A stretch of DNA of 64,000 nucleotides from an uncultured Pseudomonadales bacterium (GTDB lineage Bacteria; Patescibacteriota; Microgenomatia; UBA1400; UBA1396), in assembly GCA_964598125.1 (NCBI GenBank), contig CAZRAG010000001.1, forward strand, positions 8,810 through 72,809, in the 5' to 3' direction. A model generated the notes under the pieces. The model had not been told where the DNA came from. It saw nothing but the letters and a program-made list of their open reading frames with translations, and did no database searches. The stretch's first letter is position 1, and each line of letters begins with the position of its first letter. Shown here in pieces: positions 337 to 18,552 of this stretch. Made by a program: the position numbers and the translations under genes.

Positions 337-364
337 TTGGAAACTTGAGGAAATTGAGTATAAT
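337..364 (+). promoter_or_regulatory. sigma70-like promoter candidate for the tRNA-Asn gene
   Basis: ttggaa (337-342), a 16-nt spacer, then tataat (359-364). The tRNA starts about 33 nt downstream. Confidence 0.4.
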
Positions 365-396: not shown

Positions 397-468
397 TCCC
401 CTGTAGCTCAACGGTAGAGCAGGAAGCTGTTAACTTCAAGGTTCGTGGTTCGAATCCACGCGGGGGAG
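397..468 (+). tRNA. tRNA-Asn (anticodon GTT)
   Basis: Hand-folded cloverleaf. Acceptor stem 397-403 pairs with 461-467 (7 bp, one G-U). D arm is gctc/gagc. Anticodon stem ggaag/cttca carries loop cTGTTAa with U33 and A37, giving anticodon GTT. T arm is cgtgg-TTCGAAT-ccacg, with discriminator G468. The 3' CCA is not encoded. Confidence 0.85.
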
Positions 469-628
469 CATAGAAAAATCCGCATTTGCGGTTTTTTTAT
501 GCTCTCTTGCTAAGGAGGGAGCCATGTTCCGAAGGGGTCGAGCATTCCTTACTCTTGATGCATGCGAGACAACCCGAGTGCAGGCTAAGCGAGTGGAAGC
601 GAGCGAAGTCGCTAAGACACGCGGGGAT
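461..628. repeat. Direct repeat copy 1: tRNA 3' end plus ~160-bp downstream flank, attL-like
   Basis: Positions 462-580 are near-identical to 4155-4272. Similarity continues at about 75% identity to about 628/4322. The repeat begins inside the tRNA acceptor 3' strand (gggggagcat). Confidence 0.7.
474..498 (+). terminator. Hairpin plus T-run downstream of the tRNA; also present in repeat copy 2
   Basis: aaaaatccgcatttgcggttttttt has a short GC stem (ccgc/gcgg) extended by an A/T arm, then T7. It is a weak stem, and bidirectional in principle. Confidence 0.4.
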
Positions 629-715
629 CCAGATCGTTATGACAATTCTCAAAACAGTTATTGGGAAAAGGGTCTTCCTGTCAAATCGACTTCATTAACT
701 GAAAATGTTCTTTAA
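524..715 (+). CDS. Small hypothetical protein (63 aa) encoded within the repeat. Its N-terminal 19 aa are duplicated at 4218
   Basis: A strong SD (aaggaggg) lies 5-6 nt upstream of the ATG. The first 19 codons are identical to the copy at 4218..4355 apart from synonymous changes, after which the two diverge. It could instead be non-coding att-flank sequence. Confidence 0.25.
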   Translation: MFRRGRAFLTLDACETTRVQAKRVEASEVAKTRGDPDRYDNSQNSYWEKGLPVKSTSLTENVL

Positions 716-1646
716 TTGCAAAGTTCACGCTACTCCTGTCTCGGGATTTATCAAAACCAGTAACCCGATAATAGTCCTTTTTCCCACCATGGCTTAAGGC
801 AAGTGACCTGTTGGGCCAGAGCTTGTACAGATTTTTCAACCACTTTTTTTCATTACGTTTGGTAATGGAGCTCATTATTGTGTAACCGATGAAATCAGGC
901 AAAAATAGTTGGAGATGCTCCTGCTCACTACCGATAATAAAGTCTTCGAAAAATTTCTTAGCATTATGATGGTGAACATCACCATTCTCAGAGTGGTAGA
1001 CAAGATAGGGATGCTCAGCGTCCCATTCTTCAGGAGTATATATGCTGTATTTATGGTTAAGTTCGCTGGTTGTAAGAATCATCGTTGCCTGAACCAGGCG
1101 AATGAATTTATTTGGTTGATTCTGGGTATCAATAATATGGTGCATGCGCCATTCATCCCTGGATACATGTGTGTAAACATAGTCAAACTGGAAAAATCTT
1201 TGCCATTCAAGAAATATTTCTGTAAACATCACAAATTTTGCGTAATCTCCGACGCTATAATTTCTTAATTGATCAAAATAAAGGCGCAAGTCATCAACGT
1301 ATGATGGTTGTAGCTGATCGCCCATTTCTACAATTTTCTCCTCAGCCTTTTTAATAGTCTCTGTGCAGTGTCTTTCAACCCAGGTTTCGTCCTCTGAAGT
1401 CAAGTCATAAATGAATGATGTGTATTTTATTTCTTGATGCGCGTTAATATAATTAAGCACTTTTTTTCTTACTTCGTCATTAATGGTTTTTCCTTTAACA
1501 CCCATCAAACCTTGAGGAAATAGTCGGTCCATGAACTTTTGAAAAGAAGACCATTCTGCGTCAGTAATAGTTACCAAAGTAACAATTCCAAATCGTTTTT
1601 TTGTCGAATCACGAAAAGAGCCAGTTTCGTCCAAGACAACGTACAT
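681..1646 (-). CDS. DUF3800-like protein (N-terminal MYVVLDETG motif)
   Basis: 321-aa ORF. The N-terminal hydrophobic-x-DE(S/T)G motif is characteristic of DUF3800. It is the first gene of the islet next to the tRNA. Confidence 0.5.
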   Translation of the reverse strand: MYVVLDETGSFRDSTKKRFGIVTLVTITDAEWSSFQKFMDRLFPQGLMGVKGKTINDEVRKKVLNYINAHQEIKYTSFIYDLTSEDETWVERHCTETIKKAEEKIVEMGDQLQPSYVDDLRLYFDQLRNYSVGDYAKFVMFTEIFLEWQRFFQFDYVYTHVSRDEWRMHHIIDTQNQPNKFIRLVQATMILTTSELNHKYSIYTPEEWDAEHPYLVYHSENGDVHHHNAKKFFEDFIIGSEQEHLQLFLPDFIGYTIMSSITKRNEKKWLKNLYKLWPNRSLALSHGGKKDYYRVTGFDKSRDRSSVNFAIKEHFQLMKSI

Positions 1647-1722
1647 ATTCTAATCATATAAGATAATTTAGAACAAATCGATCAACTATCTTCGCTTATT
1701 ATAAAATTGATATGATGTATTC

Positions 1723-2004
1723 ATGAAATCTCTATTCGGATTAGTAATTATCTGCTTCATATCGTTTTGGTTATGGAATAACGTTATTTCCCCTCCAAAG
1801 TACATTGGCTTCTACTATCCTGATTCTAGTAACCTTTTTATCTACAAGCAAAGTCCAGAGTTAAGCTCACTAGAGCAATGCCATGAATGGGTTAATGAAG
1901 TTAGTAATGAAAGGACAGACACGAATTTTGACTATGAATGCGGTAAAGATTGTAAATTGAGTAAAAGTGGTGAAATGTATGTCTGTGATGAGACTCTCAA
2001 ATAA
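1723..2004 (+). CDS. Small secreted or membrane-anchored hypothetical protein
   Basis: 93-aa ORF with an N-terminal hydrophobic segment and several Cys in the C-terminal part. Confidence 0.4.
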   Translation: MKSLFGLVIICFISFWLWNNVISPPKYIGFYYPDSSNLFIYKQSPELSSLEQCHEWVNEVSNERTDTNFDYECGKDCKLSKSGEMYVCDETLK

Positions 2005-2042
2005 ATTGTAATTCTTGCATAAGTAGATATAGAATATCGTTA

Positions 2043-2585
2043 ATGGGAAAAAGATTCCTTATATATCTTACAGTTTTTGTTTTTTTGCTTTCATTTTCTC
2101 CATCCGTTTTAGCTCATCCCGGTAGAACAGCGGCTGATGGCTGTCACTACTGTCGAACAAATTGTGATAAGTGGGGAGTACCTTGGGACGAACGACATTG
2201 TCACAACGGTGGAAGTGCACCAGCTGTGACCCCTCCAAAACCAGTTGCCACACGAAAGCCATACGCTGCACCAACCTCCAAACCGACCCTCAGACCCACC
2301 TACAAACCTGTAGCTTCGCCAACACCCCTTCGAACATGTTCAGCTACCAGTGACGGTATTTGTCCAAACAACTGTACGGCTGGAAACGATAGTGATTGCT
2401 GTGCTAGAAAATCAGACTACAAATGGTATGACAACTGGGGATGTTATCCCAAAAAACTTTTTTGTTCTGCTCAATCCGATGGTGTGTGTCACTGGTACTG
2501 TTCAGCAGGAAATGACGCCGATTGCTGTGAACAAAAATTAGAGAGTTATCAGTGGTATGAAAACTGGGGATGTTATGAAAAATGA
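2043..2585 (+). CDS. Secreted cysteine-rich protein with two tandem ~43-aa Cys repeats and an N-terminal H-x-G-x4-DGCHYC motif
   Basis: Signal peptide MGKRFLIYLTVFVFLLSFSPSVLA. Repeats are CSATSDGICPNNCTAGNDSDCCARKSDYKWYDNWGCYPKK and CSAQSDGVCHWYCSAGNDADCCEQKLESYQWYENWGCYEK, separated by a Pro/Thr-rich linker. Confidence 0.6.
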   Translation: MGKRFLIYLTVFVFLLSFSPSVLAHPGRTAADGCHYCRTNCDKWGVPWDERHCHNGGSAPAVTPPKPVATRKPYAAPTSKPTLRPTYKPVASPTPLRTCSATSDGICPNNCTAGNDSDCCARKSDYKWYDNWGCYPKKLFCSAQSDGVCHWYCSAGNDADCCEQKLESYQWYENWGCYEK

Positions 2586-3054
2586 CAGTTATTCATTGGA
2601 CAAGTCAATAAAATTTTTACTCATGATTGCAGTATGTGTAATTTTTTTGCTGTTTGGTTTGGCCTATTGGTATCTACATCTGTCTGGTGATAACTGTCAA
2701 TCAGCAACGACTGAGAACCAAATTGATGGCGTATCTATCCATAATATAAACAATAAAATCTCTTATTTGGAAATCGTTGATCTCAATGACGATGGAATTG
2801 ATGAAGGAATTTTTCGTCTAACAAGTATGTCTTGGATTTCTGAGATTCGAATTCTTAATGATGAGCTATTGCCTCTCTGCGATAAATGCGACTTTTTAGT
2901 TCGCAATGGTGGTCTCGAATACGTTGATCTTGATAATGATAAAGTCTTTGAACTCATTATCACGAATGAAGTTGAATACACAAATGAAGTAGAAGAGATT
3001 TTTTCGGAAAGAAGCACATATTGGTGGGTTAATGATAATTACGAGAAAAGATAG
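2575..3054 (+). CDS. Membrane-anchored hypothetical protein
   Basis: ORF 2557..3054. The internal ATG at 2575 gives a short overlap with the upstream stop. An N-terminal TM helix is followed by an acidic soluble domain. Confidence 0.45.
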   Translation: MKNDSYSLDKSIKFLLMIAVCVIFLLFGLAYWYLHLSGDNCQSATTENQIDGVSIHNINNKISYLEIVDLNDDGIDEGIFRLTSMSWISEIRILNDELLPLCDKCDFLVRNGGLEYVDLDNDKVFELIITNEVEYTNEVEEIFSERSTYWWVNDNYEKR

Positions 3055-3198
3055 AAAAATGTGTTTGAATATGCTTTTTAATAACCTCAACAAGCTAATA
3101 CTCATCTACAACAAAAAATTGTCAAGAATTGGTAAGACCTCTAATAAGTTAGGCAAACGATTGAAAAAGCAGATAAAGTCTCATCATGTTATAGAACA

Positions 3199-4002
3199 TC
3201 ATTTCCTATATTTCCCACCACAGAAATTTGCTGTCATCGTAAGTAACATTTCGTGAGGGATGTAACCCAACATGTTTTCTTTACCAGTTGGTTTTTTTAC
3301 ATATGTCATTTTACAAGCATCCCTATATATAGTAATTTCTTCTTCTATGCTCTCAGTTGTAGATACGGCAAATATTTTTTCTTCATCCCATTTAGTAACA
3401 TTAAACAAAGATTTGTCCACTGTTAACCATCCATTATTCCATTTTTGAACTGTACCTGTAAGCCATTCGCATTGCATCTTATCCTGATCACAGTCCACAG
3501 AAATCCACCTTGCCTCATCTGCTAACTTGCTTACATCATCCCAGTCTCCTTCAATTTTAACTGATCTTCCGTAATCATAAATATTTGAAAATCCTTCTAT
3601 ACTACTCGTCTTATAATAATATGAACCATCAAAAAGAATATATAAAATCAGCCATGCTAAAAAGAAAATCAAAAAAATATTCCACTTTTTATAACTCGGA
3701 AATATTTTTTCATTCCTCTTGCGTAAGATATCCCATATTTTTTTAATTCCCAAAATAACTAGTGAAAAAATATTCGTGATAACTAATATTCCTGTAATGA
3801 TCAAAAAGAATGATATAACATTGAGTTTAAGATCATTAGTAGATTCATAGAGAAAATATAGAGCTATGAAGGGTGATGACAAGTTGAAGAGAACTAGAAT
3901 GAATCTAGCAATTTTCAAAATGAGATTTTTTTCTATTAACTTTCCTTCTAAAAAAATTGGAAGTGTATTAAATAATGGGTTTTTTTCCACTTTTTTTATC
4001 AT
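3199..4002 (-). CDS. Polytopic membrane protein with a C-terminal soluble domain
   Basis: 267-aa ORF with about 4 predicted TM helices in the N-terminal half, followed by a Trp- and Cys-containing C-terminal domain. Confidence 0.5.
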   Translation of the reverse strand: MIKKVEKNPLFNTLPIFLEGKLIEKNLILKIARFILVLFNLSSPFIALYFLYESTNDLKLNVISFFLIITGILVITNIFSLVILGIKKIWDILRKRNEKIFPSYKKWNIFLIFFLAWLILYILFDGSYYYKTSSIEGFSNIYDYGRSVKIEGDWDDVSKLADEARWISVDCDQDKMQCEWLTGTVQKWNNGWLTVDKSLFNVTKWDEEKIFAVSTTESIEEEITIYRDACKMTYVKKPTGKENMLGYIPHEMLLTMTANFCGGKYRK

Positions 4003-4124
4003 AAGTTGAATATATCAATAAATTTCTTAATATGTGAAGTAAATTTTCATCAGCTTGTTGTAGTCATGAAGTCAGAATAAACAATTCCTCAAAGAATCAT
4101 GTCCACTAAATATGAATACCTCAA

Positions 4125-4322
4125 CCCACTCCCTTGTTCGTATACCAACCATCTGGGGGAGCATAGAAAAATCCGCATTTTCGGTTTTTTTTATGCTCTC
4201 TTGCTAAGGAGGGAGCCATGTTCCGAAGGGGTCGAGCATTCCTTACTCTTGATGCATGTGAGACCACCCGAGTGCTGATGGAGCGAGTGACAACGAGCGG
4301 AGACGCAAAGACACGCGAGGGA
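4125..4322. repeat. Islet right-end arm (4125-4154) plus direct repeat copy 2 (4155-4322), attR-like
   Basis: 4155-4272 matches 462-580. The preceding 30 bp (cccactcccttgttcgtataccaaccatct) resemble 11708-11737 (cccaccccctggttcgagtaccaaccatcc). Confidence 0.7.
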
Positions 4323-4355
4323 GGTAAATTGGATTGGCAGGTGCCACATCAATGA
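4218..4355 (+). CDS. Second copy of the repeat-encoded small ORF (45 aa)
   Basis: Same SD and N-terminus (MFRRGRAFLTLDACETTRV) as 524..715. It diverges downstream and is shorter. Confidence 0.2.
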   Translation: MFRRGRAFLTLDACETTRVLMERVTTSGDAKTREGGKLDWQVPHQ

Positions 4356-4510
4356 AGTACAATGCAAAATTTTCAATTGGATCAGTCAGAAATGCACAAA
4401 AAGGCAAAGGAATACCCGCTGCTTTTGAGGGTGAGCTTCCAAAAGGAAAATATGATATTCATTCTGAACTCAAAGTTCCCTAGGTGGTGGGAAATTTATG
4501 AGAGAGCAGC

Positions 4511-5284
4511 TTAGCCTACGAGGTTATAGAGTTGTTGGTTGATACTCTTCCAAGAAGCTTCAAACTGGTTCTTCAGTTCATTTGAGGACTCAATTTCATC
4601 CAAAAGTCTGAGCCCGATTTTTATCAAACTTCCATGAGTAATCATTAGGGCCATTTCAATATCTCTTTCAGATGCCCCAGTAATAAGTTCCTGAGTTGTG
4701 TGATCCAAGATGTCACTTGGTGAAGTGTGATTCTTTCGGTTTCCAGCCACATAGACCTTCAATACTGTTTCTTTTTCAGATGAATTTAACAATCCTTTGT
4801 TTACAAGCCATTCAATTATTTGCTCAACACTTTGGCCTGACCAATTGTTTCGTTTTCTTAGCTTCTCAGGAACTTGATCGTAGCTCTTATTCACCAGCTC
4901 TTGCACTTGTTCTTCAACAGTTGATCCGAATGATAATAGGAATTCCATATCATTTTTTTGATCTACAGCTACATAGTCTAAAAATTGATCTGTGTATTTC
5001 TCTTTATCTTTTTCCGCTATATATTCCATATAAATCATGTCTTCAAAAACTCTTCTTGATAAATCAAGCATTGATCCACCAACTACTATTTGTAAGTCTG
5101 GCATTTTTTCAACCTCATCAGCGAGCATCACAAGAGTTTGTAATGTGAAATAACCTTTTCTGAAAACAAGCTCAAGTATTCTGCCAAATTTTGACTTATA
5201 CTTATTTGGTCCCGTAACTACAGGGTGAGCAATTGATAAAAACTTCTGAGATTTATCAAGAAATTCTGGTCGTTTTGTTGACAT
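4511..5284 (-). CDS. Hypothetical protein
   Basis: The listed ORF 4511..5362 begins at a TTG. The internal ATG at 5284 (MSTKRPEFL...) avoids overlap with the divergent gene. No recognisable domain. Confidence 0.45.
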   Translation of the reverse strand: MSTKRPEFLDKSQKFLSIAHPVVTGPNKYKSKFGRILELVFRKGYFTLQTLVMLADEVEKMPDLQIVVGGSMLDLSRRVFEDMIYMEYIAEKDKEKYTDQFLDYVAVDQKNDMEFLLSFGSTVEEQVQELVNKSYDQVPEKLRKRNNWSGQSVEQIIEWLVNKGLLNSSEKETVLKVYVAGNRKNHTSPSDILDHTTQELITGASERDIEMALMITHGSLIKIGLRLLDEIESSNELKNQFEASWKSINQQLYNLVG

Positions 5285-5339
5285 ATCAGTATGATAACAA
5301 AACAGAGACAAACAAAGAAATAATATAGGTAACCATGTT

Positions 5340-6125
5340 ATGAAAAATAATCTTTTTTCCAAAGATGAAGTGGCTTGCTCTGATAAATTTGATCAACTCT
5401 TTTCAAGCGAGATCAAACTATTTTCAAATCTCTTTGAACAATTGGAAAGCTTTGTCAGTCAAATTAGTGGGAAAATAAAAGACACTGAGAGACCAGATTA
5501 TACTGTTGAAATATTACTGGTCCATAACCTTTCACTTTTCGCCTGTGCTTTCAACCAATTACGAAGTGGATACTTGGGGGTTTCTCAAGCAACTCTTCGC
5601 TCTATAGCTGAAAATCTTACAATGTCTATGTATTATTGGGAATTTCCAGAGCACGAAAAGAAATACCGGGACAATACGAGATCGTTGTGGAATTCTATAA
5701 AGCAAAAAGGGTATGCAGGTGAATGGATGGATTTGGCATTAGCTCGGATTGATAAAGAAGGAAAAGTTTTCAAAATTCTTGATGAAAGCGGTGAAAGAAG
5801 TTGGCAGAAGTTTATTTCTCAAAACCTGATGGAAGAAGCAAGTAGTTTTTTACATCAAAATTTTCACTTCGTTGAAGCACTTGTTTATCAAACTACTAGT
5901 AATGATGGTAAAAACCACTTTGTATATGGACCGCATTGGAACAACGATGAGGTCATGAAGAACGGACTCTGGAAACTTATTGAAGCACTGATATTTGAAA
6001 CAATTGTTTTTGACACAGTGTTCAAAAAATTTATAAATGTGAATGATAGGAAGCTGGTTGGTGAAGCGGTGGATCAGCTAAACGAATGGAAAATTGAATA
6101 CAATAAATCTGAGGAAAAATTATAA
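5340..6125 (+). CDS. Hypothetical protein
   Basis: 261-aa ORF, divergent from 4511..5284 across a 55-bp intergenic region. No recognisable motifs. Confidence 0.5.
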   Translation: MKNNLFSKDEVACSDKFDQLFSSEIKLFSNLFEQLESFVSQISGKIKDTERPDYTVEILLVHNLSLFACAFNQLRSGYLGVSQATLRSIAENLTMSMYYWEFPEHEKKYRDNTRSLWNSIKQKGYAGEWMDLALARIDKEGKVFKILDESGERSWQKFISQNLMEEASSFLHQNFHFVEALVYQTTSNDGKNHFVYGPHWNNDEVMKNGLWKLIEALIFETIVFDTVFKKFINVNDRKLVGEAVDQLNEWKIEYNKSEEKL

Positions 6126-6252
6126 GAAACACATCCTGATTTCTTCCAATGCGGTAAGCAGTTTATCAGACCTCAAGTAATACATCCCACAACTTAATAC
6201 ACCGAAATAGAAGCTAGAACCTTGATGAGTTTTTGATATACTTTGAGGCATT

Positions 6253-6900
6253 ATGCCTCCAGAAATAACCAACATCGATTTAATCAATCTTGTCGCTGCC
6301 ATAGCCTCACTAGTTTTGGCTGTTATAGCTATTTGGCAAGCTATCCATTTTTATAACCAAGCAAAGTCTACCGAGTTAAATACCGCACTTACACTAGAAA
6401 GTATAAAGACCCAATCAACCATGCTCGAGCGCTTAACTGCTAAATGGATGGACAGATTTACTAAATACGTTACTAATCCCAGACCGATTGATGAAACAAC
6501 TACTAAACTTTTGGAGTTTATAGAAATAAGGCAGATGGCTTTAAATTTACCTTCTCCTGAAGACAGTAAACAAAAAAGCGAGTTAATTCAGGAACTTATC
6601 ACAAGCTACATAGCAGTACTTTATTATGTTGGGATATCCAATATTACAACTCAGCAACATCTCCCTGAAGCAATTGAAGACCTAGATCAAAATGAAGGAA
6701 TTAAACAAATTGTTGATCAAAGTAAAGCCGATTACGTTTATTTGAAAGGTGTATTAGCTAATATTGACCAAACTCAACTTGAATCTAGTAGACTAAAACA
6801 TTTATACGATCAAGCTCTCGGATGGAATCAATTTATAAAAGATACTGCATCAGTTTATAGTAGTAGGGCAAGCAATACAAATCAAGGAAGTGGTACCTAA
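6253..6900 (+). CDS. Membrane-anchored hypothetical protein
   Basis: 215 aa with an N-terminal TM helix (LINLVAAIASLVLAVIAIW) followed by a helical soluble domain. Confidence 0.45.
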   Translation: MPPEITNIDLINLVAAIASLVLAVIAIWQAIHFYNQAKSTELNTALTLESIKTQSTMLERLTAKWMDRFTKYVTNPRPIDETTTKLLEFIEIRQMALNLPSPEDSKQKSELIQELITSYIAVLYYVGISNITTQQHLPEAIEDLDQNEGIKQIVDQSKADYVYLKGVLANIDQTQLESSRLKHLYDQALGWNQFIKDTASVYSSRASNTNQGSGT

Positions 6901-6933
6901 TAATAAAAGCAATTCCTGATTTCCTCTACAACG

Positions 6934-6949
6934 GGGAGCATACGAAAAC
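6934..6949. repeat. att-core-like fragment (ggggagcatacgaaaa)
   Basis: Matches the tRNA 3'-end/core gggggagcatagaaaa at 463-478 and 4156-4171. It lies in the intergenic region between two convergent genes. Confidence 0.3.
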
Positions 6950-6991
6950 CACACCATCTCCTAAAAAATTCACGCACTTCCTAAGCCTCCC

Positions 6992-8860
6992 TTACCCCAC
7001 CAACCTCTCTCTAAAATACTCCCTCGTCTCTGCATCAGCAGAAAAAATTGAGCAGCTCTTCATACCTCGGCTCATCAATGTTCGATAGGTGTTTTTAATA
7101 AGCGTATCAGCACGTTTTTGTGCTGCCTCCGGGTCCTCCTCATACGCCTTCTTATAACCTTTCAACGACTTGTCGAACTGATCTCGAGCGCCAGGATTCG
7201 TAACAACCTCACCATCTCTGACTATCAAATCAGGGCCAATAATGACGCCTACATGTTGTAACTCCAAGCCTTGGGCCGTGTGAATACAGCCCACTTGATC
7301 GATCGATTCTGGATTAATAATCCAAGTACCACCATGTTTTGATAAGTTCCACTGCATTTGGAATCCATATTCAGGGAACTCAATATCATACTCATTCGGA
7401 TTGTTCTTTGACTTCCACCGCCAACAGTATCCGGCCAGCATTCGAGCCCGATTGTCTGGTTTATTTAAAGTCTCAATATGCTGCTTTAAAAGCATCGGAT
7501 CATCAAAAACACGAAAGTCATACTCGGATTTTTCAAGCCGAATATTGGCCGTTGGTGTTATGCCCAAAGTATTGTCCAACCATGCTAAGTAACCATCCGA
7601 ACCATTGCACCGAAACTGTGATTCCAGTTCAAAAGAGTGAACATCTGCTCCATACCACTTCGCCCACTTTTCAATCTCCGCGACCGAACCCATATCTTGC
7701 CAAGTGACTTGTTGTGATTCATCAATAAAGAACACGGACACCTTAGCGGCACTTATGATTTCCTTTACCTGATTCTTCCCAAAATTGCTAAAAAGACCAC
7801 TTTTCTCTACTAAGCGGTGGGCCTCATCCGTAATCAGGGCATCGTACTCATTATCTGCAGAAGAAATGAAAGAGCCTGAACCGGTAAAGAGAGTATTAAT
7901 CTCTGATTGTTTGTAGGAGTTAGTGAGCTTTGCTTCAAAAACTTTCCGGGGCGCACTATTTTTTGTTACGTAACGGACATTCTTGCGGTGATCAATAATG
8001 CCAGCAGCTAGCAGGTTAATGGCGACCACAGACTTTCCTGTTCCTGGGCCACCCCGAATAATTATGACTTGCTTGCGAGCATGCTTGTCTGCATCCCGAA
8101 TGGCGCGAGAAGCATACTCAAAAACAATTTTTTGAGAGTCTACGAGCATGAAGGCTTGGTTCCCTTGCAGCATATCAAGCAATTTATTCGCCAACTCTTC
8201 TGTTGGCTTGTAGTTTGATTCCGATAGTACACGCAAAATGTTACAAGAATCCGACACAATACCGGCAGATTCGAAATGCTTAATCAGCTTTTCTCGATCC
8301 TGTTTTACAAATAGGGGAGACTGGGACCAATAGTGTCGGTAAAAATCACACAAAAGTTCGTTATTGGATTCACAATTATGAAGGTAGGCACAGGTACGAA
8401 TATCAATATTATGTTGTGAAACACTTTCGTTGAAGTTGCGCAAAAGGTGCGCGTAGGACAAAGCTTTCTGGGAGGGATGATTTGTTTCAGTATACCCACC
8501 GCCAAGCCAAGTCCGCACGATTCCATCCATGTCCGTTCTCTCAACTCGCGCCCACTGCTTGAGCTCCACAATATACACCTTCTGTTCACCCATAGATGTT
8601 TCACCAGCAAGAATAAAATCGATGCGCTTCTTGGTAAAGGGAATACCAAATTCTATCGCAACCGTTGCATCATCATGAAGATCAGCACTATTAACTACAT
8701 GGTACATGGCATTACCAATTGAGTTCTGCCACGCTTTGTACTCAGAGGATTGAGGTTTAATATTTATGAGTAGTTTTTCGCGAACTTGCTGGCGGACAAT
8801 ATCTTGGATATCTGGGGCATCTTGAAGAAACTGCTTCTTCGTAGCCTGGTAAACAATCAT
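6992..8860 (-). CDS. DUF2075-family protein: N-terminal PD-(D/E)xK nuclease-like module plus SF1-like ATPase (Schlafen-like helicase domain)
   Basis: 622 aa. The N-terminus has ...RIDFIL...(13 aa)...IVELKQW, a D...ExK restriction-endonuclease-like signature. Walker A is IIRGGPGTGKSVV, Walker B is LITDEAHRL, and a UvrD_C-like motif is IHTAQGLELQHVGVIIG. The start overlaps the MazG-like stop as ATGA. Confidence 0.75.
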   Translation of the reverse strand: MIVYQATKKQFLQDAPDIQDIVRQQVREKLLINIKPQSSEYKAWQNSIGNAMYHVVNSADLHDDATVAIEFGIPFTKKRIDFILAGETSMGEQKVYIVELKQWARVERTDMDGIVRTWLGGGYTETNHPSQKALSYAHLLRNFNESVSQHNIDIRTCAYLHNCESNNELLCDFYRHYWSQSPLFVKQDREKLIKHFESAGIVSDSCNILRVLSESNYKPTEELANKLLDMLQGNQAFMLVDSQKIVFEYASRAIRDADKHARKQVIIIRGGPGTGKSVVAINLLAAGIIDHRKNVRYVTKNSAPRKVFEAKLTNSYKQSEINTLFTGSGSFISSADNEYDALITDEAHRLVEKSGLFSNFGKNQVKEIISAAKVSVFFIDESQQVTWQDMGSVAEIEKWAKWYGADVHSFELESQFRCNGSDGYLAWLDNTLGITPTANIRLEKSEYDFRVFDDPMLLKQHIETLNKPDNRARMLAGYCWRWKSKNNPNEYDIEFPEYGFQMQWNLSKHGGTWIINPESIDQVGCIHTAQGLELQHVGVIIGPDLIVRDGEVVTNPGARDQFDKSLKGYKKAYEEDPEAAQKRADTLIKNTYRTLMSRGMKSCSIFSADAETREYFRERLVG

Positions 8861-9189
8861 AATTCAGAATATTTCTTGGCACTGCCACGGGCTTTTTCAA
8901 CTGGGTATTTTTGGGCGTTGTGCTCAATTTTTTGGAGAGCTGCTGCCTCAATGTCTATGCCTGCATCATGGGCGAGGAGGAGCACCCAGTTGTACACATC
9001 AGCCAGCTCATTACTAAGCGCTTCTTTTTGAGATTGAGTGAGACTTTCCTCTGTTGAGTGCCACTGAAATATTTCGAGAACTTCAGCTGCTTCTAAAACA
9101 AGTGACTGAGCGAGATTTTGCGGGCGGTGGTATTGTTTCCAGTCACGTTCCTCGCGGAAAGCGAGAAGTTTTTTGAGTACAGCATTCAT
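8857..9189 (-). CDS. MazG-like nucleoside triphosphate pyrophosphohydrolase (single domain)
   Basis: 110 aa carrying the MazG EExxE...ExxD pattern (LEAAEVLEIFQW ... ELADVYNWVLLLAHDAGIDIE). It is translationally coupled upstream of the DUF2075 gene. Confidence 0.75.
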   Translation of the reverse strand: MNAVLKKLLAFREERDWKQYHRPQNLAQSLVLEAAEVLEIFQWHSTEESLTQSQKEALSNELADVYNWVLLLAHDAGIDIEAAALQKIEHNAQKYPVEKARGSAKKYSEL

Positions 9190-9489
9190 AGGGTTATGAT
9201 ACCTCTTTTATTTGAATAGTTAAGAAACTGAGAAATTCTTAGAACAAAATCTTTCTAGTCTACTTATTGTCGTCAGCTTTTTTTGAAAAATAACTTTTAT
9301 CACCCTGAATAGCATCATCCTATAACATTTACTTTCTCCTTCATCTCTAATATAATCCCTCCGCCTAATCGTTACACCATTCAATTTTTGGTGCAAACGA
9401 TAAAGCAGCTCATGAACAGGTGAAAGTTTTTTAGCACAGGTTCGCGGGTAAAAACCTATCAGACGCTTTAGTTCCCTTGGAGGATACAA

Positions 9490-11079
9490 ATGTTGCGTCA
9501 AATCTTGTTCGTGCTTGTTGTCCTTTCCATTGTGATGACAGCTTGCGGGGGTGACGCCCAGCAGCCAGTCATTGTTGAAGATACCGCCCAGCCCATTCAG
9601 CCTTCGGTTGAAAATGTGGCCATTCAACCCACTGCTCAGAGTCAGAGCGCGACCTCACCAACTTGTCAAAACGAACCCCGTATTGGCATGCGCTTCGTTT
9701 GGAACGAGCTCCAACTCGCTTCCAATATTGGAGTTCGCGCTTGGCCTACCGCTGAAACCGCCCTAATGAATCTTGATTCCGGCTATGTTGAAATTGCCGG
9801 AGAAATGATTCAGCAGAGCGGTTCAATTGATACACTTGCGTGGGATTTTCCATCAGCCATCATGGCGACCGATTTTACCCACCTCTATCAAGTCATTGAT
9901 GGGCCGGTGTGTAATGGCTCGCAGTGCGCTTGGCTTGTGACCTTGCTCAACGGAGAAATCGGTTGGACGCTGTGGAACAACGATTTTTGCGAGTGGGAAT
10001 ACAGCCAAGTTCCTAATTGGAAAGCTGGTGACTCACTGGTCGTTCAAGCGAATCCGTTCAACAATCTGCCGATTTTCTTTGGCGATCCAGTTCCTGGAAC
10101 ACCCGTCGATACTCTCCCAAACGGCACCATTGTTTCGGTTATTCAAGGGCCAGTTATTAATGGCCAGTGGTACAGTCAATGGTTTGACCTTCAGTCTGTG
10201 ATTGCTCCAGGCCCAAATGCCCACGGCTATCGCTGGTGGCTCGTACGCTTGGAAAATGGAAGTCAGGGATACGTTCCCGAAGGACTTCCCATGGACAATC
10301 CCTGGCTGGCAAACTCAGCCGTCCCACAGCAATTTGTTGGCGCGGATGAGCCGTGGAGTATTACCTACCTGCGTGTTCCCGCTCCCGTCGCTTTGGACAG
10401 CATAGCCGTTTATGAGCAGCCAATCGATGGAAGCTCAGTTCTCGGCTACCTAGAGCCACTTCGTTACTATGAGTACGTGGCAACCCAACAGTCTTCCAAC
10501 TGGCTGCAGGTTCGCAATCCCTACGGCCTCAATGGCTGGATTGACCTACGTCAGTCACGCAATCTGATCAGAGTAGGCAATCTCCAACAAAGCACTCTCG
10601 CAGAGCTGCCCGTTGATCAGATCATCGAGCAAGCAAGCGTCGCAACGATCACAACGGTTGCAGATCTGGAGCCAGAACAACTGCAAGCTCTGCAAACAAT
10701 CCTCAACCAAGAACAATTGCAACTAGTTGTTCCAATGACAGAAGCGGTGGGAGTAATTGTCCAATACTTCCGAACAGGAAAGGCAGGATCTCTTACAGAT
10801 GCCGTGTGTCTTCCGGTTTCAATTCTGACCGGAGAATCACTTAGCACCCAAACCGCTGATAGCATTTGCCTATTTATAGGTCTAGGCAGTGCAAATCCCT
10901 ATTTTGCTTGGGCTTCTATTACCGCTGACCCATCACGTTACATCGACTCCTGGTATATTCCTTTGCAAACCCAAATCTTGGATCGTACTTCCGGCTCCTG
11001 CCTATTTGCCAAGTACTTTGTACCAGGCGGAGGCGGGGAGCGCTGTGAAGGTATGAACCAATACGATATCTGGGATTAA
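9490..11079 (+). CDS. Secreted lipoprotein, hypothetical
   Basis: 529 aa. N-terminus MLRQILFVLVVLSIVMTACGG is a lipobox-type signal peptide. SD ggagg lies 7 nt upstream. GC is higher than in neighbouring genes, and the protein is Trp-rich. Confidence 0.6.
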   Translation: MLRQILFVLVVLSIVMTACGGDAQQPVIVEDTAQPIQPSVENVAIQPTAQSQSATSPTCQNEPRIGMRFVWNELQLASNIGVRAWPTAETALMNLDSGYVEIAGEMIQQSGSIDTLAWDFPSAIMATDFTHLYQVIDGPVCNGSQCAWLVTLLNGEIGWTLWNNDFCEWEYSQVPNWKAGDSLVVQANPFNNLPIFFGDPVPGTPVDTLPNGTIVSVIQGPVINGQWYSQWFDLQSVIAPGPNAHGYRWWLVRLENGSQGYVPEGLPMDNPWLANSAVPQQFVGADEPWSITYLRVPAPVALDSIAVYEQPIDGSSVLGYLEPLRYYEYVATQQSSNWLQVRNPYGLNGWIDLRQSRNLIRVGNLQQSTLAELPVDQIIEQASVATITTVADLEPEQLQALQTILNQEQLQLVVPMTEAVGVIVQYFRTGKAGSLTDAVCLPVSILTGESLSTQTADSICLFIGLGSANPYFAWASITADPSRYIDSWYIPLQTQILDRTSGSCLFAKYFVPGGGGERCEGMNQYDIWD

Positions 11080-11100
11080 CTTTCCACCTGTTCCAACTAA

Positions 11101-11122
11101 GTGGCCCTCTTCGGAGGGCCAC
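11101..11122 (+). terminator. Stem-loop after the lipoprotein gene, with no U-tract
   Basis: gtggccctc-ttcg-gagggccac is a perfect 9-bp stem with a tetraloop. No T-run follows, so it may not be a classical intrinsic terminator. Confidence 0.3.
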
Positions 11123-11138
11123 CAAACTTAAATGTAAT

Positions 11139-11477
11139 TCATTTTCCCAAATATGCTCTCAGAATAAGTACGAGTACAACAATTGGAACCGCTATGGAAC
11201 TCCAAAGTTGTTTCCCTGTTATGTTATATGAAGAAATTGGCGATATTTTTCCAGTAGAGAAAAAGCTTCCTACAAAACCTATGGGTGGTAGAAGGTAAAC
11301 AAGAGCAGTGTATGGTAGCAAATAGCTCATAATTCCAACTGATCCAAGATAGATCCATAGAGAAATTCCTTGCAGATTAAAGTAGTTTTTCTGCACTTGA
11401 AATTTAATGGTAAACAACAATAAGAAAACGAAAAGATAGAGTGACTGCAGAGGGGTCATGTATTGATTATAGTTCAA
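11139..11477 (-). CDS. Small polytopic membrane protein
   Basis: 112 aa with about 3 hydrophobic helices. Confidence 0.4.
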   Translation of the reverse strand: MNYNQYMTPLQSLYLFVFLLLFTIKFQVQKNYFNLQGISLWIYLGSVGIMSYLLPYTALVYLLPPIGFVGSFFSTGKISPISSYNITGKQLWSSIAVPIVVLVLILRAYLGK

Positions 11478-11707
11478 AGCAGTGACAACGAAAATGCGTT
11501 CAAAAATTTCCAGCCGTCATCTCAAACTTTCAACTCGTTCAATCTTCAGGCCGCTAAGAAATTATTGGAATAACAGCCCACAAAATGTACTCCTGTTGAA
11601 CCACTAAAGCTAGTCCTATGCCAGCAATTCCATAACCCCACAACGGCCACCCAGTTAATTGAATCCTTCGCATATCTGCATTTTAGCAGTAAACAAATAC
11701 TGTGATA

Positions 11708-11748
11708 CCCACCCCCTGGTTCGAGTACCAACCATCCGGGGAGCATCC
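11708..11748. repeat. Islet right-end arm plus att-core-like fragment (distal boundary of the island array)
   Basis: cccaccccctggttcgagtaccaaccatccggggagcat is about 80% identical to 4125-4164, which directly precedes direct repeat copy 2. Confidence 0.5.
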
Positions 11749-11811
11749 TTTTCCGATATGAAGTGATCTGCATAAAATGGCTGGAAGTTTTCTTATGTTA
11801 CACTCAGATCT

Positions 11812-12438
11812 ATGAATAAATTTCTTGCTACAAGAGATATTTATAACAAATTCGCTTCCCAATTTGCCGACAAACTCGACAAAATTCCCGAAACAACCCA
11901 ACTCGATGAATTTATAGCAATGCTACCTCCTCAAGCCACGGTCCTTGATCTAGGTTGTGGAGCGGGGCGAGACTCAGAATACCTGCACCAAAAGGGATTG
12001 CAGGTTATTGCCGTCGATCTTTCCGAAAACCTCATCGCCGAGGCAAAAAAGAGAAGACCACAAATAGATTTTCGCGTGATGGATATGGAAAATCTGGATT
12101 TTCCTCGTGAGACCTTTGATGGCATCTGGTCAAAACTCACTATTATCCACGTTGCGAGAGAGACGCTTCCAATGATTCTCGCAGACATTTATAAACTCTT
12201 AAAACCTGGTGGTGTCTTGATGATTGAAACGAAAGCTGGGGAGGGGGAGGGCTTTGAGCCAGTGAGTTTCAAAAATGATGAGCAACGGTACTTTGTTTAC
12301 TATGAGTTAGAGGAACTTATTCAACTCTTTCGGGACGCTGGATTTGAGAATGTCCAAGGCTACGAATACTCCGTCAAGAACGAACATGCCACCAAGAAAA
12401 AGGAACGAGTCGTTGTGAGTGGTCAAAAAGCAGCCTGA
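11812..12438 (+). CDS. Class I SAM-dependent methyltransferase
   Basis: Motif I VLDLGCGAGRDSEYL, followed by an acidic motif II (VAVDLSE). Confidence 0.75.
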   Translation: MNKFLATRDIYNKFASQFADKLDKIPETTQLDEFIAMLPPQATVLDLGCGAGRDSEYLHQKGLQVIAVDLSENLIAEAKKRRPQIDFRVMDMENLDFPRETFDGIWSKLTIIHVARETLPMILADIYKLLKPGGVLMIETKAGEGEGFEPVSFKNDEQRYFVYYELEELIQLFRDAGFENVQGYEYSVKNEHATKKKERVVVSGQKAA

Positions 12439-12508
12439 GTTCCACCTCAGAACAACAAAAGCCTTTGCTCTCCTTGCGCCCTTCTTACTAACTGCTAAAA
12501 TCGTTGTC

Positions 12509-13522
12509 ATGTCCACCCATCCGGACTCGCAACCCGTTGCCCTTAAATCGTTAAACATAGCTATTTTGTACTCCGACGCTAAACGTGAGTATTTTCAAAC
12601 CGAAGAACACTACTTAACTGAGGCTGAGGTTTTTCACCGGGCCCAAACCATTGCTAAGCAACTCGAAAAAGATGGCCACCATTGTTTCTTACTCCCAGGC
12701 AATCAAGATCTCGCTGAAAATCTCAAAGAGTGCAAGCCAGACATGGCCCTGAACTTAGTTGATTCTGTGTATGGTAAAGAGTTCTTGAGTGGTTCTATAC
12801 CTGGACTTTTGGAACTTCTTCAAATTCCGTACACGGGTTCCGGAATCCTTGGACAATCCATTAACAGTAACAAATACTTAACCAAGTCACTCATGAGGCA
12901 ATATGGAATAACCACACCAAAATTCCAGTTGGTTACTTCGGCCAATGATGAAATTGATCACCTCCTTGATTATCCCCTGATTGCTAAACTCAATGAGGTC
13001 CACGGTTCTTTAGAAATAAGCCGAGATTCTATTTGTTTTGATGAAAAGTCGCTCAAACAGGTTCTGAAACGCTTGTTTGCTACCTATGATCAACCCGTTC
13101 TCATTGAGGAGTTTATTGCAGGCAAAGAAATCACGGCAATTGTGGCCGAAGGAGGAGTAACCAAAATCTATGCCGGTGAAAGGCATTTTCTCAAACGCTC
13201 AGCATCGCCTTTTGAACAGATTGCCGCCTATGAAGATGTTTGGAGTGATGAACAAACAGTGGGCTATGATAAGTACGAACTGCCACTGACCGTAAAGGAA
13301 ATGATCAAGCTCACCTACAGCATTCTTCGCTTGGAAGATTATGCCCGCTTTGATATGCGGCTCGATCAGTCTGGTAGGCACTATATTATTGATGCCAACA
13401 GCAACCCCGCTTTAGGGTTAAGAAATGACACCGCTATTGGCACTCTGCTTGATTTATATGGCATTTCAATCTCAACGTTTATGGAAAGGTTACTACGCAA
13501 CACGCTGTATCCCAATCAATAA
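12509..13522 (+). CDS. ATP-grasp domain protein, D-Ala-D-Ala ligase-like
   Basis: The ATP-grasp fold pattern runs from IAILYSDAKRE through PLIAKLNEVHGSLEIS to IEEFIAGKEITAIV. The listed ORF starts at 12419 with a 20-nt overlap on the methyltransferase; the ATG at 12509 is used here. Confidence 0.6.
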   Translation: MSTHPDSQPVALKSLNIAILYSDAKREYFQTEEHYLTEAEVFHRAQTIAKQLEKDGHHCFLLPGNQDLAENLKECKPDMALNLVDSVYGKEFLSGSIPGLLELLQIPYTGSGILGQSINSNKYLTKSLMRQYGITTPKFQLVTSANDEIDHLLDYPLIAKLNEVHGSLEISRDSICFDEKSLKQVLKRLFATYDQPVLIEEFIAGKEITAIVAEGGVTKIYAGERHFLKRSASPFEQIAAYEDVWSDEQTVGYDKYELPLTVKEMIKLTYSILRLEDYARFDMRLDQSGRHYIIDANSNPALGLRNDTAIGTLLDLYGISISTFMERLLRNTLYPNQ

Positions 13523-13539
13523 AACCAGCTTTTAGCTTA

Positions 13540-14253
13540 GTGGAAATTGAGGATGTCTGTTTGCGAGATGCACGCTGGGTGGAACTTTCCCTTGCGAATG
13601 CATCACCTTCAGACATAAAACCTATGTATAAGGAAGCACGGGCATTTGCCCGAACACAGTCTGCCCAAAAAATAGAGTCAACAATGAGTGTGGCCAGCAT
13701 GGAGAAATGGGAGAAACCGCTCAAAGATTTGGGGTTCCGTAATGGTCTGGTTGAACTTCGCAAGCCCATACCACAAGGACTTAACCCAGGCACTTTACAA
13801 GGAGAAAGTACCATCATTCTTCAAAACACCGTTAAATCAGATCAATTGCGACCCATACTGGAACAGCAGGCGCTCGTTCATTATGAATTAGAACCCAATT
13901 ATTATTTAGCGCCTAGTGAAATTAATTGGTCCTCATTACTTGCCGAACTAGAGCAGGAAAGACTCAATCCAGACGGAATTCAGTTGGTCGCCCTCACTGA
14001 TCAACAAGTATCCGGTCTCTTGTGGGGCGAAATTATTCGCGACGTTTTACATCTTTGGGATGCAGTTGTGGATCAATCCCTACGATCACAAGGCATTGGA
14101 ACCGCTTTGATGAATCAATGTTTTATGATTGCTCAAAAAAGAAATGTCCCTCTCCAACTTGAAACTTGGAGAACTCAGCGTTCATTTCAGTGGTATCAAA
14201 AGCTTGGATTCTCTGTCACTCACCAGTCCTTTTATCAAAGGATATCGCCCTAA
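13540..14253 (+). CDS. GNAT-family N-acetyltransferase
   Basis: C-terminal acetyl-CoA-binding motif VVDQSLRSQGIGTALMNQCFMIAQK. Third gene in the same-strand operon. Confidence 0.6.
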   Translation: MEIEDVCLRDARWVELSLANASPSDIKPMYKEARAFARTQSAQKIESTMSVASMEKWEKPLKDLGFRNGLVELRKPIPQGLNPGTLQGESTIILQNTVKSDQLRPILEQQALVHYELEPNYYLAPSEINWSSLLAELEQERLNPDGIQLVALTDQQVSGLLWGEIIRDVLHLWDAVVDQSLRSQGIGTALMNQCFMIAQKRNVPLQLETWRTQRSFQWYQKLGFSVTHQSFYQRISP

Positions 14254-14463
14254 GAAAAAGTGACCAACTCAATCTTTCTATAACCACTTTCTCTTGGTTA
14301 GTAATCTAAACTTATAACACAACATAATATCCTATAACAATTGTTTTCTTCATATTTTCCTCTATAATATCCTTCTTGCCTCTTTGTCCTGACGACATTT
14401 GGGGCGATCCTGAACATCAGTACTACGTTTTTATTTTCCTTTGTGTCACTGGAGGCACACAAT

Positions 14464-15246
14464 ATGGCAAGAATCGAAAACCCGTACGTAGGAGACCTCC
14501 ATCGGGGTCTCGAATTGGCACATTTATTGTGCACCGCCGTTCAGCAACACGCATTTGTGACCATCCTAAAGGGAGGGCGCAGCTACTTCCTGTCTGTAGG
14601 CGGCTGGGCCGGTGATAACCCACCACTGGACTCGCGCGCACCTTATGCATCAGGGGCTAAGGCACTGGAACTCTTGTGGAAGGGAGCACCGCGTCCTGGA
14701 CAACTGCTCTGCACCCCAACCGATCTGAGCCTGAGCTTGGGCTGGAAGGGCGGAGTGCGAAATACGGACTATATCGTGGGCGTCTCCAAGTGGGCAGAGG
14801 AACACGATCTCCTGCTGGCCCTTATCGTCCTGTACGGACTCCAACAGGAGGTTCGCCTCCATCATGTTGGGTTCCGTTATGCGTCCATTGACGCCTACTT
14901 CGCGGCTTCCAAGCTCTTAGGTGCGGGCGTTGACGTGCCGGCCAAAGATCACCTCCGGAGATACCACCGTGTTGAATCAAGCTTGACGCCAAACGGGGAA
15001 TACTGGCAAGAAATCCAGTTCTTTCCCCAGGGGCCGCACACCAGGGCCGTCCATTGGGACATCGCTACCAGCGATCCCATTGGACTGCTGATGCACGTCG
15101 CCAACGCCTTTGGCACCCAACCGTCTTTCTTTGCCGATGCCGGGAAATACGATCCGGTCGGCGTGGTCTGGATTGAAGGCGGGGACGGAAAAATCATGGG
15201 TCTTATGACCCGAGACCGCTGGAGCGATCCGGCAACCTGGCAATAA
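14464..15246 (+). CDS. Hypothetical protein; high-GC orphan gene
   Basis: ATG at 14464 has SD ggagg 8 nt upstream; the listed ORF starts at an upstream GTG. GC is clearly above that of its surroundings. A candidate promoter (ttgttt-16-tataat) lies about 14340-14368. A terminator follows the gene. Confidence 0.5.
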   Translation: MARIENPYVGDLHRGLELAHLLCTAVQQHAFVTILKGGRSYFLSVGGWAGDNPPLDSRAPYASGAKALELLWKGAPRPGQLLCTPTDLSLSLGWKGGVRNTDYIVGVSKWAEEHDLLLALIVLYGLQQEVRLHHVGFRYASIDAYFAASKLLGAGVDVPAKDHLRRYHRVESSLTPNGEYWQEIQFFPQGPHTRAVHWDIATSDPIGLLMHVANAFGTQPSFFADAGKYDPVGVVWIEGGDGKIMGLMTRDRWSDPATWQ

Positions 15247-15269
15247 TCGCGCAGTACTGATTGTGTTAT

Positions 15270-15307
15270 GGGCGCTCCTCTCAAAGGGAGCGCCCGCGTT
15301 CGTTTCA
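15270..15307 (+). terminator. Intrinsic terminator-like hairpin; member of a conserved pair
   Basis: gggcgctcc-tctcaaa-ggagcgccc followed by gcgttcgttt. The same 3' flank (agcgcccgcgttcgttt) recurs at 17785-17805. Confidence 0.5.
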
Positions 15308-15410
15308 ATGTACCTTTTCCTCATTAACCAGGGAAATCTTATTCTTACCCACTTCTTGCAAAAACCTTAATGTTCATTGCCTTTGATTCTCTAAACTTCC
15401 TTTATCAATA

Positions 15411-15824
15411 ATGGATAACAAGGAGGTTTTCGTGCCCAAATATGTCGATGGATTTGTTTTAGTTGTCCCAAAAGACAAAACTGAAGAATATAAGAAAATG
15501 GCTGAGGATGGCCGTGATTCGTGGATGAAGCATGGCGCGCTGGCCTACTATGAATGCCGTGGAGATGACCTTATCCCTCAAGAAATGGGTGGTGAAAAAG
15601 CCCGAGCCTTCCCAGAAATGGCTGGTGCGACCAATGATGAAACCGTGTGGTTTTCATTCGTTGTTTTTGAGTCCAAAGAGCATCGGGACCAAGTAAATGC
15701 CAAAGTCATGGCAGAAATGGGAGAAAAAGCATCCGAGTACAAGGACTTCCAAATGCCTTTTGACATGAAAAAAATGGCCTACGGTGGCTTTCGAGTTGAA
15801 GTTGAAGGGGAGAATACAGAATAA
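15411..15824 (+). CDS. DUF1428-family protein
   Basis: 137 aa. N-terminus VPKYVDGFVLVVPKDKTEEYKKMAE matches the conserved start of DUF1428 (YbaA-like) proteins. Confidence 0.55.
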   Translation: MDNKEVFVPKYVDGFVLVVPKDKTEEYKKMAEDGRDSWMKHGALAYYECRGDDLIPQEMGGEKARAFPEMAGATNDETVWFSFVVFESKEHRDQVNAKVMAEMGEKASEYKDFQMPFDMKKMAYGGFRVEVEGENTE

Positions 15825-15854
15825 TTCTCTCTTCATGGTTTCCCCACTGTTACA

Positions 15855-16493: not shown

Positions 16494-16506
16494 ATTACTC
16501 CGTTAC

Positions 16507-16722: not shown

Positions 16723-16731
16723 ACATGTTCC

Positions 16732-17743: not shown

Positions 17744-17768
17744 CACGTCCCGCAATTCAAGTTTGGAA

Positions 17769-17805: not shown

Positions 17806-17818
17806 GTCCTGTACTCAA

Positions 17819-18517: not shown

Positions 18518-18552
18518 ATCAATATATTAACCCAATACCTTTCCGGAAGCTA

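Follow-up and report, generated by a model that had tools for sequence, protein, structure and literature searches.

Behind a tRNA-Asn gene of an uncultured Candidate Phyla Radiation (CPR) bacterium lies a stretch of DNA that is probably an array of elements integrated site-specifically at the 3' tip of that gene, and that carries no integrase. The array spans positions 472-11737 of a 64-kb window, by which we mean the whole stretch of DNA analysed here, taken from a metagenome-assembled genome (MAG). Our best reading divides it into two elements of one family in tandem, unit 1 (472-4154) and unit 2 (4165-11737), because two units are the simplest history that explains which ends are common, namely a left-end arm (L1) and a right-end arm (R1). 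Between these arms lie three stretches of cargo, islet A in unit 1 and islets B and C in unit 2 (Table 1).

Repeats at the 3' end of tRNA-Asn

The tRNA-Asn(GTT) gene itself is intact (ARAGORN; Rfam RF00005 tRNA, 63.6 bits). Comparing the window with itself by BLAST, we found one strong repeat, which starts in this gene, and a shorter second one. The long repeat aligns 462-626 with 4155-4320 at 90.4% identity over 166 nt (E 8e-59). Alignment columns 1-104 hold a single mismatch and a single indel (an extra T), and the first 120 columns contain 116 identities; the match then weakens, with about 60-85% identity in each 20 columns, and fades out near 628/4322. On the left it starts abruptly: the boundary falls between C461 and G462, within the acceptor stem's 3' strand. 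The tRNA share of the repeat is 9-10 nt (462-470), and the other ~157 nt, the L1 arm, are downstream flank. The two copies of this arm, L1a and L1b, differ at 488/4181 (G488 vs T4181), in the length of a T-run and at 565/4258 (C565 vs T4258).

The 3' tip of tRNA-Asn is the core 9-mer GGGGAGCAT, of which the 64 kb hold exactly four copies (at 463, 4156, 6933 and 11738), always on the plus strand, against an expectation of 0.34 per 64 kb; four copies were reached in 1 of 100 shuffles. These four co-oriented copies, numbered S1 to S4 from left to right, are confined to 11.3 kb of the window. All four sites diverge right after GGGGAGCAT, except S1 and S2, which have L1 in common, and this divergence together with the sharp edge at 461/462 looks like a recombination breakpoint. 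S3 is the weakest of the four. It reads GGGGAGCATACGAAAA where the tRNA end reads GGGGAGCATA-GAAAA, that is, an exact 10-mer, a 1-nt insertion and five more bases, and we estimate that its 10-mer would arise by chance on one strand of 11 kb with a frequency of ~0.01. An alignment of the sites revealed no R1 arm to the left of S3. A nearby segment, 6127-6160, just after the stop codon of the gene at 5340-6125, resembles the left flank and core of S3 (6907-6940) at 71% over 34 nt and ends GCGGTAAGCA vs ACGGGGAGCA; the likeness could be due to chance or mark one more boundary that has decayed, and the extra degenerate core that the segment would contribute at 6151-6160 (repeat family D7) was too weak to count.

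The second repeat aligns 4124-4164 with 11707-11746 at 85% over 41 nt (E 1.6e-4). Its first 31 nt are R1, which stands directly left of a core copy at both places and agrees at 26 of 31 nt between the two right ends. The R1 pattern GTTCGNNTACCAACCATCNGGGG has two sites in the window, even when three mismatches are allowed, and 0.00 were expected from 100 shuffles. A scan of Joint Genome Institute (JGI) metagenomes with the same pattern returned a single 1-kb contig, L039, which reads ATCCACTCCCTCGTTCGCATACCAACCATCCGGGGGAGC and whose sequence on both sides of R1-core is unrelated to the window. The presence of R1-core with other flanks indicates that R1 is a conserved, portable, element-borne end and not a product of chance or of local tRNA decay. 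R1, L1 and their junction had no match in viral contigs.

These results bear out the repeats and coordinates described in the original prediction. They also bear on its question of whether the repeats could be a dispersed intergenic family, that is, a terminator-bearing repeat or a miniature inverted-repeat transposable element (MITE) that happens to lie near a tRNA. L1 does begin with a strong hairpin terminator, and the window holds another hairpin repeat family, at 15270 and 17769. However, neither strand of the other 52 kb contains a further copy of L1, R1 or the core, all copies share one orientation, the repeat starts inside the tRNA acceptor stem, and MITE-type terminal inverted repeats and target-site duplications are lacking. 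We consider a dispersed repeat most improbable.

It is also quite improbable that no mobile element was involved and that the tRNA-Asn end and its flank were copied by segmental duplication, followed by decay and ordinary gene gain, with R1 being a rotted T-arm. Uniform decay would be expected from such a history, whereas identity jumps from ~50% to ~99% at 461/462. R1 does contain GGTTCGA, like the T-loop region of the tRNA, and does end in the acceptor 3' strand, and the G+C content of L1a and L1b is chromosome-like; yet the same supposedly decayed R1 is found twice in the window and once more in an unrelated, differently flanked contig, no remnant of a tRNA 5' half precedes any R1, and relatives hold real integrase-bearing insertions at this very point. 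The GGTTCGA of R1 sits 5-6 bp further from GAGCA than the T-loop motif of the tRNA does. We tried this offset as a sign of serine-integrase half-site geometry and left it unused, as it is ambiguous: a second GGTTCG in the tRNA lies 2-3 bp the other way.

Both arms are G+C-rich (about 52%), and we treat L1, of which GGAGGGAGCCATGTTCCGAAGGGG is an example stretch, as a non-coding end region with a terminator. RNA folding places a hairpin/terminator in L1a at about 466-506, closed by GAGCAT...ATGCTC, and beyond the hairpin comes a stretch of 52% G+C with a Shine-Dalgarno sequence and an ATG, without a conserved coding signal. A known RNA was discarded as an identity for L1 (no Rfam match; unremarkable fold z-scores of -1.8 and -0.1). 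So was a coding sequence: neither frame has a homologue among 5.8 billion proteins, there is no Pfam match, and substitutions between L1a and L1b are mostly non-synonymous in both frames. Nor is L1 the stub of a serine-recombinase gene, for a tblastn search of the window with the recombinase of a relative (L016, below) found only the tail that is encoded within the tRNA.

The tRNA-Asn neighbourhood in relatives

Contig L002, which extends upstream of the window, carries dnaG, rpoD and two small open reading frames (ORFs) before tRNA-Asn. A DnaG search matched only CPR/Patescibacteria (Woesebacteria, Levyibacteriota and Roizmanbacteria, at 33-47% identity), and the organism is a Microgenomates-like CPR bacterium. 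The 84-aa protein encoded upstream of tRNA-Asn had no relatives, and a contig scan with it gave none. In at least 10 relatives tRNA-Asn lies a few kb from dnaG, and the synteny dnaG-rpoD-...-tRNA-Asn is kept; two of their contigs end exactly at tRNA-Asn and two carry it on the opposite strand. Behind the tRNA, each relative examined has a different sequence.

The tRNA-Asn end is used by serine-recombinase elements in distant relatives. The gene directly behind tRNA-Asn in L016, which lies on the other strand, encodes a 508-aa large serine recombinase (domains Resolvase, Recombinase and Zn_ribbon_recom), and its final 12 codons and stop codon fall within the tRNA gene. A different serine recombinase occupies the same position in L031, a related CPR MAG (CAZKMY010000036.1), and its stop codon also lies in tRNA-Asn. 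The tRNA of L031 holds a group I intron in its anticodon loop (9147-9384; Rfam RF00028, 89.8 bits), which is why ARAGORN missed this intron-split gene. L017 carries a scar: 11 nt of the tRNA tip are repeated 127 nt downstream, after a T-arm-like remnant. Among L016, L017 and L020 the tRNA-Asn sequence is identical and divergence sets in immediately after GGGGGAGCAC. No tyrosine integrase was seen behind tRNA-Asn in six relatives.

Small accessory genes, for DUF1428, glyoxalase/3-dmu-9_3-mt, DUF2975 and bacterial hydrolase proteins, recur near dnaG-rpoD-tRNA-Asn, both in the window (11800-36000) and in L008, L016, L017, L020, L022, L025 and L029, in varying order and orientation; the DUF1428 protein of L008 is 75% identical to the product of 15411-15824 in the window. 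The whole dnaG-rpoD-tRNA-Asn neighbourhood appears to be a plasticity zone.

Proposed integration history

From the arrangement of the repeats we infer the following order of events. Each incoming circle would have carried an attachment site (attP) of the form R1 arm-core-L1 arm, and crossover within the core (G)GGGGAGCAT would have left the tRNA body untouched. Integration would have put L1 right behind the intact tRNA, its hairpin serving as the new terminator, and left R1 with another core copy at the opposite boundary. The regenerated tRNA tip would then have received a second element of this family, an accretion that would result in the layout tRNA-core-L1a-[A]-R1-core-L1b-[B ... C]-R1-core-chromosome. 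The fully empty site should accordingly read tRNA-core then TCCTTTTCCGATATG under this model, and the joint loss of A and B should leave tRNA-core then TACGAAAACC.

The original prediction had proposed repeated site-specific integration at the tRNA-Asn 3' tip, and the common core, the sharp 461/462 edge and the element-side arm fit this proposal, which has good support in its broad outline. Its description of the repeats as a classic attL/attR signature does not hold, since the repeat takes only 9-10 nt of the tRNA and then 157 nt downstream. Its count of three segments is not established: two units (unit 1 and unit 2) have both ends in common, and the site at 6933 has the core and 6 nt of L1 but is without R1. 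Unit 2 is nevertheless probably a composite of two elements whose junction at 6933 has decayed to a core and 6 nt of L1. The S3 core, the G+C step at this point and its position between convergent genes suggest such a fusion, and the missing R1 is why we call it probable only.

As also predicted, the window encodes no recombinase or transposase: when the concatenated translations of all its ORFs of at least 70 aa were compared with Pfam, none contained a resolvase, phage-integrase, rve, DDE or further transposase domain. The units could equally be decayed relics or cis-mobilisable cassettes served by an integrase encoded elsewhere. The original prediction favoured no enzyme class; by analogy with the two relatives L016 and L031, a large serine recombinase is a better candidate for that enzyme than a tyrosine integrase is. 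The length of L1 and the general rule for tRNA islands keep the tyrosine class in play. The same history could have been the work of tyrosine-integrase islands whose long attP (~200 bp) mimics the tRNA 3' end and its flank, and whose integrases were later deleted. Such islands usually target tRNA and tmRNA (transfer-messenger RNA) genes (Islander, PMC4383910), R1, core and L1 together have the ~200 bp typical of a tyrosine attP, and a common core of 9-10 nt suits an overlap region of 6-8 bp. We nonetheless hold this version to be somewhat unlikely, because no tyrosine recombinase was seen in the window or in the sequence behind tRNA-Asn in the six relatives, the recombinases found at this tRNA end are all of the serine type, and the identity block stops short of the tRNA body, unlike in the usual tyrosine-integrase islands.

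A more specific extension of the proposed history, which we regard as doubtful, is that R1-core-L1 would be the ~200-bp attP of recombinase-less cargo cassettes shuttled in trans by a serine recombinase of the cell or of a phage. If true, the tRNA-Asn tip in Microgenomates-group CPR bacteria would hold defence and accessory genes as an exchangeable, modular array and form a satellite system of the cis-mobilisable element (CIME) or tycheposon-satellite type in a lineage with almost no knowledge of its mobile DNA.

Several observations weigh against integration of two such units. S3 has no R1 arm, and islet C has genome-like G+C content. The part of the repeat derived from the tRNA is only 9-10 nt, and L1, at 157 nt, far exceeds the length of an attP half-site of a serine integrase. 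Outside the array, L1 had no match in the viral collection or in the (translated) protein search, and neither the viral contigs nor the single metagenome scan contained an integrase-bearing element with R1/L1 ends. No excision junction and no mobilising integrase were found in the window or the contigs examined, and no empty site was recovered among the relatives identified through DnaG, which are only 34-47% identical in that protein. The remaining points concern the assembly. The window comes from a MAG, and the join around 4073-4228, including the first R1, is present in the deposited assembly only. In contig L003 (logan SRR6488407_29), position 4072 is followed by the reverse complement of 4637, with the microhomology ACTTC(C)ATGA at the junction (window 4064-4072 and 4628-4637). 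Such a join would invert the R1-core-L1b segment and cut the DUF5677 gene; it could be genuine, as an inversion carried by another strain, or chimeric. Finally, strain identity is mosaic genome-wide (among SRR6488385 contigs, L037 matches 12249-20934 at 100% and L040 matches 45664-62073 at 98.83%), so the near-identity of islet A between samples is no evidence of transfer. A recent transfer of islet A, which we had considered because it is 99.94% identical between samples while 306 nt upstream hold 10 mismatches, was dropped. The deposited genome may be either a consensus of co-existing strains or that of a population that recombines.

These points raise the question of whether the array is partly an assembly artefact, with the identical stretch of L1 (66-100 nt) having let the assembler put islet A, in truth a free circle or an element from another place, into the chromosome, or collapse strain variants. 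In favour of this, the window comes from a MAG, Logan contigs stop exactly at the point from which L1a and L1b are identical, L003 has another join at 4072, and the population is a mosaic of strains. Breaks at L1 are expected, however, for any repeat longer than the assembler word size, and the differences between the L1 copies lie within one read length, which allows large-k assemblers to phase them. L002 ties the tRNA to the copy-a variants of L1. Logan contigs from other runs, moreover, reproduce 4229-10086 (L034) and 11696-13188 (L001) at 100%, so S3 (6933) and S4 (11738) do not depend on a single assembly. If islet A were in fact a free circle, it would still carry R1-core-L1, that is, attP, and would strengthen the case for a mobile element. 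We therefore judge an artefact of this kind very improbable.

Cargo of the islets and other features of the window

The cargo consists of lineage-specific orphans together with nuclease- or defence-like genes, among them a predicted RNase H-like protein, a DUF5677 protein and a Schlafen-like helicase with MazG (Table 1). Islets A and B have 35-36% G+C, vs about 44% for the rest of the window. None of the six ORFs of islet A had a Pfam, PADLOC or PHROG match, and those of islet C gave weak PADLOC matches to PDC-S41, Nhi and AbiO.

Table 1. Coordinates of the tRNA-Asn array, its cargo and its flanks
Feature	Position	Strand	Evidence or remark
Promoter-like site, TTGGAA-16-TATAAT	337-364	+	consensus scan 10/12; consensus match only
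tRNA-Asn (GTT), intact; left anchor (attL side) of the array	397-469	+	ARAGORN, Rfam
Core copy S1, GGGGGAGCAT: acceptor-stem 3' strand, discriminator base and 3 nt beyond	462-471	+	
L1a, left-end arm, about 52% G+C	472-628	+	alignment to L1b
Islet A cargo, 35.1% G+C	629-4123		six ORFs
Islet A ORFs	681-1646, 1723-2004, 2043-2585, 2557-3054, 3032-3256, 3199-4002	-, +, +, +, +, -	
R1 arm, right end of islet A, ACCCACTCCCTTGTTCGTATACCAACCATCT	4124-4154	+	matches 11707-11737 and contig L039
Core copy S2, GGGGGAGCAT	4155-4164	+	
L1b, left-end arm of unit 2, 51% G+C	4165-4322	+	
Islet B cargo, 35.6% G+C	4323-6932		
Islet B, DUF5677 protein	4511-5362 (4511-5284 in Logan)	-	Pfam E 6.6e-7
Islet B, orphan	5340-6125	+	
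Islet B, orphan	6253-6900	+	phrog_36054
Core copy S3 and 6 nt of L1, GGGGAGCATACGAAAA	6933-6948	+	between convergent genes, at G+C step
Islet C cargo, 44.9% G+C	6949-11706 (G+C measured over 6942-11706)		
Islet C, Schlafen-group-3/DUF2075 helicase	6992-8860	-	Pfam SLFN-g3_helicase E 2e-97
Islet C, MazG-like protein	8857-9189	-	Pfam E 2e-17; overlaps helicase gene
Islet C, secreted SH3-like protein	9490-11079	+	SH3_3 weak match
Islet C, small membrane protein	11139-11477	-	
R1 arm, right end of the array, ACCCACCCCCTGGTTCGAGTACCAACCATCC	11707-11737	+	also in Logan contig L001
Core copy S4, GGGGAGCAT; then presumed original chromosomal flank	11738-11746	+	
Methyltransferase gene beyond S4	11812-12438		Pfam methyltransferase

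The 321-aa protein of islet A encoded at 681-1646 (minus strand) is oriented towards the tRNA and adjoins attL, the place in which one would look for an integrase. Its family has ~25 proteins, and all named members come from Microgenomates-group CPR bacteria. An AlphaFold2 model built from the family alignment (pLDDT, predicted local distance difference test, 88) has a predicted RNase H-like fold that resembles type 2 RNase H most. We considered and rejected the idea that this protein is a hidden integrase, as the model predicts a nuclease fold and not that of a serine or tyrosine recombinase, and the closest homologue does not lie at a tRNA-Asn end. That homologue (61% identity) is encoded between tRNA-Lys and tRNA-Arg in another genome (L041), which indicates that the content of the islet is no conserved neighbour of tRNA-Asn. 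In L041 a 600-aa ORF without a Pfam match (6270-8072, minus strand) reads through the opposite-strand tRNA-Lys (6302-6374); a repeat of the tRNA-Lys end was looked for nearby and not found.

Other repeats in the window lie outside the array. A 36-nt G+C-rich hairpin followed by GCGTTCGTTT occurs at 15270-15305 and 17769-17804; the two copies are 86% alike, carry compensatory stem changes (CTCC/GGAG vs CTAC/GTAG) and have the look of a terminator-like intergenic repeat. A 127-nt internal repeat (49454-49580 vs 49925-50051, 70% identity) lies within a gene for a 1083-aa product that carries a Peptidase_S74 (endosialidase chaperone) domain, and an intergenic near-perfect palindrome of 30 nt (93%) lies at 33164-33193.

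Discussion

Mobile DNA in CPR/Patescibacteria is poorly charted, and symbionts with tiny genomes are often assumed to exchange few genes. The end of tRNA-Asn appears to be a hotspot common to Microgenomates-group lineages, occupied by serine-recombinase elements in some and by stacked, integrase-less cassettes here. Such a hotspot would be a concrete place in which to seek gene flow, defence-gene turnover and satellite-helper relationships, and its short, well-defined attachment sites might serve as integration tools. Dehalococcoides, streptococci and Prochlorococcus offer precedents for the phenomenon, to which the array would add a lineage but no new principle; its main interest lies in the CPR host and in a tRNA that relatives use as a serine-recombinase target.

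Hackl et al. 2023 reportedly described the tycheposons of Prochlorococcus as small cargo elements stacked at tRNA genes with partial tRNA repeats, some of whose satellites are said to be without a recombinase of their own. Tycheposons are, by the same account, said to be defined by a tyrosine recombinase and replication modules, and in contrast no such modules were found in the window.

CIMEs form by accretion beside ICEs (integrative conjugative elements) and IMEs (integrative mobilisable elements) in streptococci (PMC5704250; listed in ICEberg 2.0, PMC6323972). Like them, the segments described here are flanked by attachment sites, contain no recombination or transfer genes and stand in tandem at the integration site. 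Unlike them, they have no conjugation genes, and we found no partner ICE or IME with the same attachment sites; the described CIMEs moreover use tyrosine integrases and protein-gene or tRNA targets and belong to Firmicutes, and excision was not seen here.

Islander requires an integrase gene, normally of the tyrosine type, for an island, and also catalogues tandem arrays (PMC4383910). Its islands have an intact tRNA at one end, a displaced 3' fragment at the other and atypical composition, as does our array. The lack of an integrase nonetheless places the array outside the Islander definition, and its displaced fragment is 9-10 nt, whereas tens of nt are usual.

Of the systems compared here, the tandem ssrA islands of Dehalococcoides resemble the array most. 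These low-G+C islands with strain-specific cargo and a 20-nt core (McMurdie et al. 2011, PMC3146451) stand several in tandem behind a stable-RNA gene, with a short 3'-end repeat at each boundary and, upstream of each repeat, a conserved motif that is unmatched to the RNA gene (PMC3146451). The dissimilarity of this motif to the RNA gene was what placed the crossover at the boundary between motif and repeat. A large serine recombinase is encoded on the reverse strand next to attL, and for 15 ssrA islands that have no integration module the authors proposed that they are either cis-mobilisable elements or relics fixed in place (PMC3146451). The differences are that the window units contain no recombinase or other integration-module gene, the target here is tRNA-Asn and not tmRNA, the core has 9-10 nt and not 20, the L1 arm is conserved over 157 nt, and the host is a CPR bacterium and not a member of the Chloroflexota. 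The resemblances extend to the tandem array itself, with RNA 3'-end repeats at S1-S4; to low G+C content and strain-specific cargo; to the upstream motif unmatched to the RNA gene, which here is R1 (at 4124, at 11707 and in L039, though absent at S3); to the many islands without an integration module; and to the reverse-strand serine recombinase beside attL in the relatives L016 and L031, a likeness that we draw from arrangement and not from homology to DsiB/CcrB.

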